Below, one piece after another: positions 30,001 to 36,000 of a stretch of 47,236 nt of DNA. This DNA is from a virus. Its lineage: Duplodnaviria > Heunggongvirae > Uroviricota > Caudoviricetes. The stretch is taken from IMG/VR virus record IMGVR_UViG_2522572021_000009. One strand, given 5' to 3'. The first letter of the stretch is position 1. Each line of letters opens with the position of its first letter. A program made the position numbers.

Positions 30001-33000
30001 TTACTGTACAGGACCGATTTCAGCCATAAAAAAACCCGCTCGCGGCGGGTTTAAGCTGTGTGGCAAAGTAACCACTCTTAACATACTGACATACTTTTTG
30101 CGGACCGCACTAATCATTTTTTACTTTTTTAGCAGCCAGTCGTCCATCTCCAGTCTTACCCCCAGCACAGACAAACATCCGTCAATAAACCCTTCGGCTA
30201 TCTGCATCTCAATTCGTATTGCTTTTTCGCTTTTCTTTCTCGTCCTGGCTATCTGTCTTTTTGATATTCGCAACAAATAATGAGCAATGAGAAGCGAATA
30301 CTCCTCAGGTTTTTTCTGCTTCAGACGTGCAAGACAGTTTTCAATGATAAGTCCGTCATCATCGCAGCAGGCTGGACGTGGTTTAGTGGTAGATGGTAAA
30401 AGGCCTTTGAATCCGGCAGCGATCGGAGAATAGTCCACCCCGGTGTTACCACTTGCCGCCCATGCCCCCCAGCGTTCAAGAACCATCTGAATATCACGCA
30501 TCAACTTTCTCCACAAAAATCAGGACAGCACACCAATCGCCAGTGCGCGATCGATAAAACGAAATATCAGCTCCAGTTGGGAACCATACTTCTCTTCAAA
30601 TGCCACGGTATCCGCATGCAGTTCGTCATGGTGTTTTCTGCACAAAGGCAACACAAAAAGGTCATGCGCTTTTGTACCCATTCCACCCTGACCATGACCA
30701 ATCAGATGATGAGGATCGTCCGCTGGCTTACCACAACACGCACACGGCTGTGTCTTTACCCAGCGTGTGTATTTCTCATTTACCCAGCGGCGACGTTTAG
30801 GTCGTTTCATGAAGGATTCCGGAGACTCCGGATCAACGGCAATGCTGACCACCGTCTTTTCCTGTGGTGGGTTCTGTTGCTGGTGGGTGTGAGGCGGTAG
30901 CGCAATATTTTTTGTGCGCTGCTTCAGTATGCTGGTGGCGGTCTGTTCTCCCGGTATGATGTCGCTTTCACGGTATACGGAGCGGATTTTTTCCGCCGGT
31001 AATCCCAGAGAGCGACGCGATACTGCCTCAGGTAATGCGTCCACCACCTGATTGCAGACTGCCCACCAGGATAATTCAGCCAGCGATAATTCCCGCTCCT
31101 GCGTGCCATTCATTACATGGCGTATGACGTCAATCATCCAGGCTGTCAGATTTTGTTGAGTAAGTTGCTCAAGTGATTCGGAGGTCTGGTCGCGCAGCTG
31201 GTTGTCGCAGTGCCAGCACAACACCATTGCGCCAGCACCGTAACTGTGAATAACGGTTTCGCTGTGATGATAATCGCCGTGTGGCCACTGGCAGGATTTC
31301 ACGTGACGTAATAACCAGTCAGACAGTGCACCAGCGCCGCCAGCTGCACGAATCACCCGCTCATCGCTGAAAAATGGCAGCAGTGATTTATCTTCCGCCA
31401 GCGGCTGGCGAACAGTAGGAACCGCTCCAGATGGCAGCGCCCGCATGTTTTTCGGTTCCGGCTCCACCAGCACCCTGCCGCGATGAAAAACTGGCAATGA
31501 TTCACGACCGGGCTTAAGGACCACCAGCCCGAGTTCCGGAACCAGAACAGGTCGAAGTAATACCCGCACATTACCTCCAGACGCGCTGACGGTAGCAGGC
31601 ATGTGTCCGTGGCAGATGTGCACGAACAGGAAGATATACAGAAACGGTCCAGGTCAGACGATCAGCGTTCAGACTCCGCTCCACACGGACACCGCGACGC
31701 AGATACGCCTCTTGAAGCATATCTGCCTCATCGATCGTACAGAACAGATAGTGAAACCAGCCATACTGAGGCGCACGAAAACGCCTCCCCTGCTTAATTT
31801 CCGGGTCGGCTTCAGAATTGTGGGATTTTATGTGTTGTGTCATCGGATTCTCCGGTGACAGCAGGTGTCAGTTGTTCAGGCTGACTGCGCGAATTGTAAG
31901 GCAATACGCCGGAATGTACAAACAGAAAACCCGTCAGTAAGACGGGCTTAACAAGCAGGGGCGGTTACTTTAATAATTTCAGTGCCTTTACATCAACTTC
32001 AACACTGCTCAGGTCTTTATCAATTTCACCCTCAATTCTTACTTTGTCTTTCGGAGAAACATTCTGCCCGGCCCATACGCTGTCATCAATATCCGTGACA
32101 ATTGTCCCGCTATTGTCACGAAACTCATAACGTTCATCACCCACTTTTTTAACGATGCTCCCTTCAAGGATAACCCATGCATCATCCTTCAGTTCTTTTG
32201 CCTGCGCTACTGTTGAACGCTCTGCTTCTGGCCCCTGGAAACCACCCTGCTGTGCAAAAGCGCCAAAAGACACACCGGAAATAAGTGCTGCAATCAATAC
32301 CTTTTTCATTCATAGTCCTCTTTCAGAGATGAACATTCAAACAGCATTTTCAGTATGGTAAAGCGCGGGTGCGTTGAGGATGCCTGACACATCAGAGGTG
32401 GCGGGAGATTACTCCCCCGCCTGGTCTCTTACTTCTCAGATTCGTAGTCTACGAAGACAGCGACCTCCGTCTGACCGGTTCGGATTCGCACCTCGCAGAG
32501 GTCTTTCCTCGTTACCAGTGCCGTCACTATGACGGTTAAACAGATGACGATCAGGGCGATTAGCATCGCCTTTTGCTGCTTCATAGCCTGCTTCTCCTTG
32601 CCTTTCGGCACGTAAGAGGCTAACCTACGTGTGTAGAGCATAGATATGGCCTCAGATTAATGTTAAGCGTCTTGCCGGACGCGTAATGTTAACTGGGGCT
32701 TTTCTCTATCTGCCTTTTGGTGTTCATGCCTGAGACAGATAGCCTCAAGCACCCGCAGCAATTTTACTTAACTCCCCTTTTCCCACAAATCGTTTTTATC
32801 CCTATTGGTAATGTTCTCCCGATGTGGGATTCCCACATTGGAACGAATTCAATCAGTTAAAGACTCATCAGAATCTCACCTTTCTAAGTGCCCACAGGTG
32901 AGGCATTGCAATAAAAATAGCAAACGTGTATAAAAGGAGGTAATGCATGTTTTTCCAGTCTTATCAATCCATTACTGAGAGTTAAGGGGGCGCCGTGGAT

Positions 33001-36000
33001 CGGTGCGGTAATTATTTACTTAAAGATGGTCGCAGTTTAGGACAAGGGAGTTTTGGCGAAGTATTTAAGGTTGATGTCTATAACTTAACCCAGACCCACA
33101 TGACCACATATGCTCGCAAATACTTTTCACCTTGCCCGGACTTTGACAAGACCGCTATAAAAGAGTTGACTGATTTAAGACAGCGTTTTTTAGTTGAGAT
33201 CAAAACACAATGCACTCTCAATAGAATAAACTATGATTCAATAGCGCCAATAGTTTTATTTAATACAAATGGTGATAAACCTTATTTTGTTATGGAATTG
33301 GCAGAGTGTAACTTATATGAAGCCATCCGCAATGGTATGAACTACGCGGAGAGGAAGTCTGCTGTTACTCAGATTTTAAAAGGAATTATCACCATACATG
33401 AAAACAACTATATACATCGTGATTTAAAACCAGGAAACATACTTTATTATGCCGATGGAAAGTATAAAATATCTGATTTTGGTCTAGTAAAAGACAGAGA
33501 TACCTTACGGGCCGAAATCAAAACAAAATTTAAGCCTAATCACATGGGCACAGATGGATATCGAGCGCCCGAAATACATGATAGCGGTCTTTTTTCTTTT
33601 CAAAGTGACATATTTGCAGCAGGTAAAATTATCACTGATATATATCCCACAGAAAGAAGTGAAAAATTAAAAAGATTGATTGCAAAATGTTGCGCACATT
33701 GGCCTGAAGAACGATATCAAAGCACACGGGAGTTACTGGAAGATTTTTTAAAAGTGACGGGGGAGGTAAATCATGAAGAACATAATTGAAATGGCATGTT
33801 TTAGCCTAAAACAACCCCAAAAAAAAGAAAATGAAGACTTTTATTTACCGCCATCTTTTGATAGCGATTTTAACATTGTCTTTGCAGTAGCTGATGGGGT
33901 TGGTTCCTCTGAACATTCAATGCTTGCATCTCATGCAGCCATTCGTGGCATTAGACACACGCTAGGCACTTCCTTTTTCTCAATTGAAAGTGCATTTCAT
34001 TCAGCTAAAAAAGAAATTGACAATTTAGATATTAGCACTGCCACAACCTTAACAATTGTTCAGATCAAAAAAAATGAAGTGTTAATTGGTCATTCCGGTG
34101 ATTGCCGAGTATACTTCAATAAAAACAATAAACTAAATCAGTTAACCACTGATCAAACGAGATATCAAGAACTCCTTGATTCTGGTGAACATAAATTACG
34201 TAATTTAAGAAATCATAAAGAACGGCTATCTTCAGTCCTAACGAATGCTTTATCAAATACAACGGATTTGAATTTTGAGTTAATGTCTTTTCCGATTAGC
34301 CAGCTAATTTATAATGGCTATCTTCAACTCTATGCAATGACTGATGGTGCCTATAAGCATTGGGATGTCAGACCAAGGTTTTCTGAGAAGACAATGCTCT
34401 CACCAACAGCTTTTGCGAGTAGTTTAAGAAAAAGGATTGAGAAAAACATAATGGATGATTACACCTTTATAGGCGTAAAAGTAACCTAATTTTAGATATC
34501 CAAGATATTTACTCTAATTTAACCATAGTATTCCCAACCTCTTTTTATTGGGGGTTGGGTTCATTAAAGTCACCATTTTCTATTTCTTTCCCGTTAGAGG
34601 ATATATTATTTCCAGATAAAGAAAGCAACTTCTTATGCAACTTCATATCACGCCATGCTTCCACCGCGGTAACTCTACATAGTCCATTAACAGTTCATGC
34701 CATTCTTCAAAATTGGCGTTATATTTAGTTGAAGCAAAATCAGCCATTTTATTCTTCCTCTTCGTCTTTTATTTCGTGATATGAATAATTGCAGTAGTTA
34801 AAGAAAATATCTTTTGCTTCGTCATGTATTTCATCAGGCGTCGCATCATCATCCACTTCGAATTCATCCTCGAAATCTCCACCGGCTATTCCCGTTTCAA
34901 TAATTATTTTAACTTTCGCATTTAACTACCGCCCTGCCGGACAGCCTCCTGATGTTCTGAGGGCGCCTCCCCCCCCCTCCGGTTAAGGATTAAATTTTTA
35001 ACAGAGCTAAATTTAATTATTCAGTTCTGGATTTTGTCGCCCTGCGTATCCGCGCTTTCGCGTTACGCTCAATCTGAATTAGCTTTTCTATATTTTTTCG
35101 CCTTTCCCGCTCCTCCTGACGCAAGAGCCTTACATCATCTGCCAGTCTGGTTTCTCTTTTCGCCACAGAGAGCATCCAGTCAAATGGCTCCACAACTGCA
35201 CCGCAGATTTTACAGCGGACCTGACGCTCTTTTTCGTCAACCCGGACAGAGGCGTGATGGCAATATGGTCTTTCCGATGGCTCATAAAGAAAATTAACCT
35301 GATTACGTGGGTCATCCTCTTTTACCGGAAATAAAACAATATTACTTAACTCATCTTCTGGTTTTATTTCCATGCACCTCTCCTTTGATGCGAATGCCAG
35401 CGGCAATTGAAGCCTGATAGCTAATTTCACTCACAGCACCACCTCCTAAAAATTCCCCTGACAGAACGCCAGTACACGCTGCATAACTTCGCTATTTCGG
35501 CACTCACTGCAAATTATGTTCTGATGCCTGTCATAGCGGCGTATTTCTCCGTCTGGTAACTTTCGAATCAATGTCTGGTCGGTTGTTTTCTCCGCTGCCT
35601 TACGCCATACGCGATACACCTGTTCTGATGCAAAAACACCGTATTTACCGGGCATGTATAAATCGCCACAAGCCAGTACATCCACAAGGCAACGTCTGAC
35701 TGAATGCCAGCCTGCTCCCGTCGCTCTCTCCAGTTGTGATATCGTCATGCGTTCATTTTTGCGTACCAGCCCGATAATTCGGGCCTTCAGTTCTTCACGC
35801 TGTTCGTGTGTAAAAGGTTTCGCCATAAGCGCCTCCGGCAATCACTTTTCCGACACAATACGACCGGATGAATCGACAATCTGCCGAACAATATCCCGGT
35901 GCTTGTTCAGCTCCCGCAGCGCGGCGCAGACACGCTCCCACTTCTGAACCTGACCTTTTGCCCGGCGCAGCTCGCGGTTAGCCACATGCAGCGATGGTAA

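Follow-up and report, generated by a model that had tools for sequence, protein, structure and literature searches.

A lambdoid prophage of Shiga toxin-producing Escherichia coli (STEC) carries in its nin region a small AT-rich cassette in which the gene for a bare Ser/Thr protein kinase is followed directly by the gene for a PP2C phosphatase. The prophage is IMG/VR record IMGVR_UViG_2522572021_000009, and its whole stretch of 47,236 nucleotides is referred to here as the window. Sequence comparisons show that the pair belongs to a discrete, conserved two-gene family, whose members sit in accessory slots of phages and satellites and in integrative elements. With moderate confidence, the pair is read as a minimal kinase-toxin/phosphatase-antitoxin module that would be expressed in the lysogen and act by abortive infection.

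The cassette occupies approximately 32803-34657 (~1.86 kb). The open reading frame (ORF) of the kinase (32995-33789, plus strand, 264 aa, GTG start) overlaps that of PP2C (33773-34489, plus strand, 238 aa, ATG start) by 17 nt, and a GGGAGG sequence stands 6 nt 5' of the PP2C ATG; translation of PP2C is coupled to that of the kinase. The ORF coordinates and strands agree with the original prediction, made from the sequence alone, of two coupled genes with this overlap running opposite to the neighboring early genes.

Catalytic Integrity of the Kinase and Phosphatase

The kinase matches the Pfam Pkinase family at 1.4e-31 (110 bits, cut-off 31.7), and its Pfam matches are confined to kinase-domain families. 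Its sequence includes G16xG18xxG21, K42, E68, H141-R142-D143, N148, D161-F162-G163, A191-P192-E193, D205, and R240, and these Hanks motifs are invariant across 26-29 relatives, which bears out the earlier description of a 264-aa bare kinase with every Hanks motif. Both the motifs and the bilobal fold are those of the Hanks-type kinase superfamily. An HRDLKPxN catalytic loop and a Gly-Thr/Ser ahead of the APE motif are signs of a Ser/Thr-type kinase; here the loop reads HRDLKPGN and the segment running into APE reads GT(186)xxYxAPE. The GTG start is supported by a common beginning, M-D/E-x-C-G-N-Y, among the homologues. An AlphaFold2 model with a predicted local distance difference test (pLDDT) score of 87.7 displays the protein-kinase fold and is uncertain only at the activation loop (171-177) and the C-terminal tail. 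It resembles many solved kinases at template modeling (TM) scores of ~0.70-0.75, with no specific nearest neighbor.

The phosphatase matches Pfam PP2C_2 (PF13672) at 1.4e-10 (41.5 bits, cut-off 24). Across 23-32 relatives there is no variation in the metal-binding motifs noted earlier in this 238-aa partner (D22, D41-G42, D191-G192, and D228-D229) or in G109-D110. Both hallmarks of the PPM/PP2C family are present, namely the beta-sandwich fold and the metal-binding Asp of motifs 1, 2, 8, and 11. Its AlphaFold2 model (pLDDT 94.3) is closest to PstP, MspP, tPphA, and Stp1 (TM 0.72-0.77), the best structural match being Mycobacterium tuberculosis PstP (1txo) at TM 0.77. Judged by conserved residues and models together, both proteins look catalytically competent. 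The pair lacks a secretion signal, a transmembrane segment, and a PASTA domain.

Among phage protein profiles, PP2C matches positions 273-517 of the 565-position phrog_5650, so some phage relatives have ~270 extra N-terminal residues. The kinase has no match to this profile, and the N-terminal extension is therefore not this kinase.

A Family of Strictly Paired Genes on Mobile DNA

Relatives of PP2C number ~100 (clusters at 90% identity), all of 234-263 aa, and come from Enterobacterales, Vibrionaceae, Aeromonas, Shewanella, Acinetobacter, and Pasteurellaceae. Relatives of the bare kinase number ~84 and have 251-288 aa; beyond them scores fall sharply, from 136 bits to the 86 bits at which unrelated 440-aa kinases start. 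Conservation of the pair across prophages, which the original prediction had put forward as a check, is strict in both directions. The family kinase lies directly upstream on the same strand in 80/80 PP2C-anchored IMG/VR loci, and PP2C lies directly downstream of 78/79 family kinases found independently in IMG/VR. The junction between the two genes measures -16 to +18 nt in all but a few disrupted loci, and every contig fetched has the same arrangement. Pairwise identities of kinase and PP2C correlate at r = 0.92 (11 loci), and no third gene is conserved alongside the pair at any locus compared.

The closest relative, at 84%/82% identity, sits between psu and int in a P4-like satellite of E. 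coli (L023-L027), and a Pantoea pair (L004) occupies the same psu-int slot, described as an anti-phage hotspot by Rousset et al. 2022 (PMC9122126). Other pairs lie near ogr where a P2-like prophage ends (Enterobacter L008), between Q and the holin gene (Yersinia L014/L015 and Cronobacter phiES15), after the lysis genes (phage Flotzy), and in small integrase/Mob islets (Vibrio L006 and E. coli L018). In Glaesserella (L011/L012), the pair directly follows cI and overlaps its 3' end, the position of lambda rexAB, forming an operon of the same type as that of 933W stk. The Acinetobacter locus has no phage or integrase genes called nearby. All of the phage, satellite, and islet positions are accessory ("moron") slots. 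Of these contexts, three (that of the window, the site next to cI, and the P4 hotspot) imply that the pair is expressed in the lysogen. Wherever it occurs, the cassette is more AT-rich than its flanks (GC 0.31-0.43 versus 0.39-0.56), as expected of a shuttling cassette.

The positions near late genes raise the question of whether the kinase acts during lytic growth, aiding the carrier phage in host takeover or counter-defense, with PP2C limiting the damage. T7 gp0.7 phosphorylates host proteins in the phage's favor. The T7 kinase is reported to disarm defenses (10.1101/2024.12.20.629319), and the late strand holds several relatives of the present pair, placed either downstream of the lysis genes or in the interval separating these genes from Q. 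However, the pair in the window is antisense to early and late transcripts, the Glaesserella pair joins the cI operon, the P4 satellite pair is in a defense hotspot, and a takeover kinase needs no dedicated antagonist. On this balance a lytic-cycle function is improbable.

In E. coli the 2-kb region is found at 99.6-100% identity in 33/5426 complete genomes. The carriers are mostly STEC (O103:H2, O145:H28, O157:H7, O45:H2, and O121), together with some porcine enterotoxigenic strains, and automated annotation with PGAP gives the pair only generic names.

Boundaries and Composition of the Cassette

Homology with other lambdoid phages stops at 32800-32811, ~50 bp past the hok/sok locus, and restarts at 34658. 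In phages without the pair, small ea/nin ORFs oriented like the early genes fill the slot over 1.5-1.7 kb. Since homology breaks at both edges and the slot has other contents elsewhere, the pair is a mosaic replacement. A search of phage DNA likewise finds the hok/sok flank to be the sole part held in common with Shiga toxin phages. The cassette brings its own upstream (190-bp) and downstream (170-bp) regions. A repeat search detected no terminal repeats bounding it, and transposon-like ends are rejected.

The base composition of the operon differs from that of the prophage, although less than first thought: the GC content is 0.359 (~0.29-0.30 at third codon positions) rather than the ~30% claimed, and the window as a whole is at 0.516, matching the earlier estimate of ~50%.

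Asymmetric Decay of the Two Genes

In at least six lineages the kinase is truncated or carries a nonsense codon beside an intact PP2C. The lesions are independent of one another. The kinase is cut by IS1 in Klebsiella (L029-L031), and its N terminus is lost at L013, at L032 (= L044), and at L085, L086, and L088. At L058 a nonsense codon falls in the kinase's conserved PWF motif, at L049 a frameshift alters its C terminus, and at L188 a 1.3-kb gap separates the two genes, with PP2C again intact in each. The reverse case, a broken PP2C beside an intact kinase, occurs at a single locus on an IMG/VR draft contig (L042 = L117), which is 99% identical. The PP2C gene of the window has two A8 runs (33819-33826 and 34067-34074); at L042 both PP2C runs are A7, and the frame is shifted. 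This is probably a sequencing error, with slipped-strand variation a less likely source of the change. Loss of the kinase beside a retained PP2C is what a toxic kinase would be expected to produce, and it is treated as suggestive only.

The same pattern would suit a pure addiction module, in which a stable kinase toxin and a labile PP2C would stabilize the prophage or satellite by post-segregational killing. The tight coupling of the two genes fits such a module, and the cassette of the window adjoins hok/sok, another killing module. Little probability attaches to addiction alone, however. Toxin/antitoxin systems of P4 and P2 hotspots generally prove to be defense systems (PMC9122126), lability of PP2C is without support, and classical addiction modules do not usually encode the antitoxin downstream of the toxin, as would be the case here.

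Comparison with Characterized Systems

The closest characterized analogue in mechanism is KKP (PfpC-PfkB-PfkA), a system of Pf6, P2, and P4 prophages in which a PP2C neutralizes two toxic Ser/Thr kinases and lytic phage infection is aborted when T4 Gp59 inhibits the phosphatase (Guo et al. 2024, PMC11341870). Both systems combine Hanks Ser/Thr kinases with a PF13672 PP2C, and both occupy accessory slots of prophages and satellites, including the P2 and P4 hotspots. They differ in architecture. KKP consists of three genes (PP2C-kinase-kinase, in this order), whereas here there are two, kinase then PP2C; KKP kinases have FHA and cold-shock (GFI/A motif) domains, whereas the present kinase is a bare catalytic domain, and the kinases of its whole family measure 251-285 aa; and the KKP PP2C has ~390 aa compared with 238 aa here. 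Against the E. coli KKP of Rousset Table S1, the kinase is 22% and 29% identical to the two KKP kinases, and PP2C is barely detectable (E = 0.009). Membership in KKP is rejected because gene count and order, domain fusions, and sequence relatedness all disagree. The pair forms a separate lineage, and the most fitting description of it is a minimal two-gene relative-in-kind of KKP, for which a role in defense is plausible.

KKP also controls Pf lysogeny via phosphorylation of MvaU (PMC11341870), and this precedent favors a different reading, in which the pair would regulate the prophage or its host (lysogeny, induction, or physiology) by reversible phosphorylation of, for example, nucleoid-associated silencers. 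The location directly after cI in Glaesserella prophages and the AT-richness of the cassette, typical of H-NS-bound DNA, point the same way. Yet the cassette is found in lambdoid and P2-like prophages, P4-like satellites, integrase islets, and the Acinetobacter site, and such unrelated element types argue against a role in the regulatory circuit of one phage. Regulation as the main function is rather unlikely, and it is compatible with defense, since KKP unites both roles.

The kinase Stk of phage 933W reportedly excludes HK97 by abortive infection and is said to be a tyrosine kinase. It resembles the present protein in being a eukaryotic-like kinase of a lambdoid STEC prophage that is co-oriented with the repressor gene, and Stk is expressed in the lysogen. 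It differs in its length (348 aa), in its location inside the cI operon, and in having no PP2C partner. Orthology is rejected: the two proteins are just 27% identical across 197 aa (pairwise E = 5e-10), and their genes occupy different genomic slots. The sources for 933W Stk are Tyler & Friedman 2004 and Friedman et al. 2011, both cited in PMC9122126.

PADLOC, also among the proposed checks, returns PD-T4-6 (1e-32) and Stk2 (3e-25) for the kinase, and mad6 and MkoA as well; the match covers profile positions 16-202 of 327, the kinase domain only. Stk2 is reportedly a validated anti-phage Hanks kinase, a finding credited to Depardieu et al. 2016. PD-T4-6 has likewise been validated as an anti-phage Hanks kinase (Vassallo et al. 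2022, PMC9519451), but it is a single 1311-bp gene (436 aa) with ~150 extra C-terminal residues and no phosphatase. Membership in PD-T4-6 is rejected on gene structure, length, and partner, the two being set apart by description and profile match. Streptococcal PASTA-repeat kinases are labeled PD-T4-6 by such models (PMC11514479), and automated "PD-T4-6" calls on any Hanks kinase call for care.

Housekeeping pairs such as PknB/PstP, Stk1/Stp1, and PrkC/PrpC also place a Hanks kinase and a PPM phosphatase in one operon. In these pairs, however, the phosphatase comes first, the kinase is a membrane protein with PASTA or other sensor domains, and both are chromosomal core genes. A housekeeping Stk1/PknB-Stp1 pair is rejected, since NCBIfam gives the kinase 88.9 bits where 450 are required and PP2C 68 where 230 are required, extra domains are absent, and the gene order is reversed. 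The TerY-P triad, which Anantharaman et al. 2012 and Gao et al. 2020 are said to have described, reportedly combines a vWA (TerY) gene with PP2C and kinase genes; it is rejected, as the pair has no conserved third gene beside it at any locus. An NleH/OspG-type effector had been dismissed from the start because the activation segment is present, and this judgment holds: the segment is intact with its APE motif, and the family is spread, with no links to type III secretion, through Pantoea, Vibrio, Photobacterium, Acinetobacter, and Glaesserella.

The STEC host and the effector kinases that STEC lambdoid prophages carry might still suggest a virulence effector or a host housekeeping signaling pair (NleH/OspG or PknB/Stp1 type), as might an O103:H2 record in which a gene named "protein kinase" stands where the prophage ends. 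This is very improbable. Secretion signal, transmembrane segment, and PASTA domain are lacking, NCBIfam scores are far under their cut-offs, the family occurs in many non-pathogens and always on mobile DNA, and only 33/5426 complete E. coli genomes carry the pair. Orthology to a characterized housekeeping or effector pair, which would have spoken against the original prediction, was looked for and not found.

A literature search found no characterized two-gene kinase/PP2C defense. The tables of Rousset et al. 2022 (PMC9122126) list "Pkinase + PP2C" in P2 loci, and that study tested only the three-gene KKP (pFR102); the P4-hotspot pair was not found by sequence among the table entries listed. 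The earlier statement that the pair is no named defense system stands insofar as the pair is neither KKP nor 933W Stk nor PD-T4-6, but both KKP and prophage kinase defenses as such have already been published.

A Proposed Model for Phosphorylation-based Defense

In the proposed model, the cassette would be a self-contained, horizontally mobile two-gene moron, whose own promoter would yield one bicistronic transcript encoding both a constitutively competent Ser/Thr kinase and its tightly coupled PP2C. In the uninfected lysogen, PP2C would keep the kinase and/or its substrates dephosphorylated, in a manner akin to a toxin/antitoxin pair, and the cell would grow. Infection by another phage would shift the balance toward the kinase. 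Three triggers may be envisaged: a phage protein might inhibit PP2C, as T4 Gp59 does in KKP, a phage protein might activate the kinase directly, or a labile phosphatase might be lost after host shut-off. Broad phosphorylation of host or phage proteins would then arrest growth and abort the infection, which would protect the prophage as well as the clonal population. In this scheme, toxicity of the kinase, its neutralization by PP2C, the way infection sets it off, the proteins it targets, and the effect on phages are all predicted elements.

Several lines of evidence support the defense reading. These include the strict pairing, the invariant catalytic residues, the slot context, and the location on the cI strand with a promoter-like site of its own. 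Decay of the kinase beside a retained PP2C and the precedents of KKP, 933W Stk, Stk2, and PD-T4-6 lend further support. The phage exclusion or host-control module suggested in the original prediction is therefore in keeping with the family context and accessory slots, and its phenotype remains a prediction.

More tentatively, the pair may be the smallest autonomous phosphorylation-based immune switch, in a family separate from KKP, PD-T4-6, Stk2, and 933W Stk that has spread over gammaproteobacterial phages, P4 satellites, and integrative elements. Given that the kinase is sensor-less, PP2C would itself sense infection in such a switch, through inhibition or titration by a phage protein or through its loss on shut-off.

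A number of observations weigh against a defense function. The kinase has no sensor domain, which leaves the trigger unexplained. At 36% GC the cassette may be open to H-NS silencing in E. coli. In several phages the pair is on the late strand downstream of Q, so that expression during lytic growth is possible. The asymmetry of decay comes from a small sample and is partly biased, because half of the loci were found via PP2C, and one assembly seems to tolerate a frameshifted PP2C. The PADLOC matches of the kinase are generic, as unrelated 440-aa Hanks kinases score equally, and PP2C matches no PADLOC model. Finally, the literature search found no experimental test of the two-gene family.

If the model is correct, STEC prophages and P4 satellites carry a compact (~1.5 kb coding), easily transplanted defense module, and phosphorylation-based immunity reaches beyond the three-gene KKP. 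A sensor-less kinase also poses a clean question, of bearing on such switches generally, of how infection tips a kinase/phosphatase balance. For phage therapy and the ecology of Shiga toxin phages, the pair may shape which phages superinfect these lineages.

Putative Signals for Expression

Upstream of the kinase, a promoter-like site can be read on the plus strand at 32906-32934, with TTGCAA (-35), a 17-nt spacer, and TATAAA (-10), and may drive the operon. Close relatives, in P4-hotspot cassettes of E. coli and Pantoea, keep the site as TTGC(A/G)(A/C/T)-17 nt-TATAAA. It is followed by a conserved 5' leader of ~50 nt (32941-32994, plus strand) that ends in a GGGGG Shine-Dalgarno sequence (32986-32990) before the GTG. 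The leader is conserved at the nucleotide level among the window and the E. coli (L023) and Pantoea (L004) P4-type loci, and transcription may start near its 5' end (32941). A 10-bp GC-rich hairpin at 34533-34559 (plus strand), 44 nt past the PP2C stop codon, is a candidate terminator. It appears in minimum free energy and centroid folds alike, and the T-run after it is weak (TTCATT). A promoter/terminator scan found nothing above shuffled expectation and called neither the TTGCAA/TATAAA site nor the hairpin; the consensus scan missed the promoter-like site because the last -10 base is A.

Two further elements had been proposed to precede the operon. The palindrome ATGTGGGATTCCCACAT exists at the left junction (32822-32838), where 8-nt arms surround one central base (ATGTGGGA-T-TCCCACAT). 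Among loci L001-L022, however, L001, a near-identical E. coli locus, is the only one to contain it, and the palindrome is missing upstream of the pair in the close relatives aligned for comparison. The TCCCACA heptamer, described as a repeated half-site, is not enriched, with 11 copies in the window against 7.3 expected; a third copy (32781-32787) is in the hok promoter region, outside the cassette.

The second element, an 11-codon mini-ORF (32943-32978) with an AGGAGG ribosome binding site (32935-32940), is also present, as is an overlapping 12-codon ORF (32947-32985), the two together spanning 32943-32985 on the plus strand. The 11-codon ORF starts just 2 nt after AGGAGG, and the spacing of the 12-codon ORF is better. 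Relatives lack the AGGAGG, and their ATGs are in other registers and give other lengths. Since AGGAGG directly follows the conserved -10, it is probably at or before the start of transcription. Both the palindrome and the mini-ORF are rejected as conserved parts of the module on account of their absence from the nearest homologous cassettes, and they are probably incidental features outside it.

The Prophage Neighborhood

The cI-like repressor gene (38955-39599, plus strand) shares the strand of the pair. The minus strand holds cro, ydaT, a DnaT-like gene, P, DUF1627, DUF977, and DUF7167 on the repressor side of the pair and hok/mok/sok, DUF968, rusA, and Q on the other, so the pair, with the early genes all opposite, is antisense to the early (PR) operon. 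Its immediate neighbors are hok and DUF7167.

The hok/mok/sok type I toxin-antitoxin locus (32429-32754, minus strand) is outside the cassette. The hok/mok ORFs are called at 32429-32641 (minus strand), and a match to Rfam sok (RF01794, 117 bits) runs from 32579 to 32754 on the hok strand, in agreement with the neighbor named in the original prediction. Because the sok model spans the hok mRNA leader, only ~50 bp separate the start of the hok transcript from the cassette's left edge. An Rfam scan of 31800-35200 matched only sok. Just past hok is a gene for a 114-aa secreted YgiW-like protein (31965-32309, minus strand, phrog_1230), and the order of the two genes is the same as that of hok and L0136 (YgiW/YdeI-like) in phage 933W.

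The record of E. coli O103:H2 12009 (L028), which has a copy of this prophage, is collinear with the window in the local region only. At its prophage end (47021-47236), a separate "protein kinase" gene follows an IS1 and may encode an NleH-type effector.

In the early operon near the cassette, 35446-35841 (minus strand) encodes a Ren-like exclusion protein (phrog_142, 2.3e-41; Pfam DUF977 in RefSeq). Downstream of the cI-like repressor gene, on the same strand and in a rexAB-type slot, is an AT-rich ORF of 216 aa (40025-40675, plus strand). It has no Pfam match and matches phrog_2151, of unknown function, and it may be another accessory gene expressed in the lysogen.

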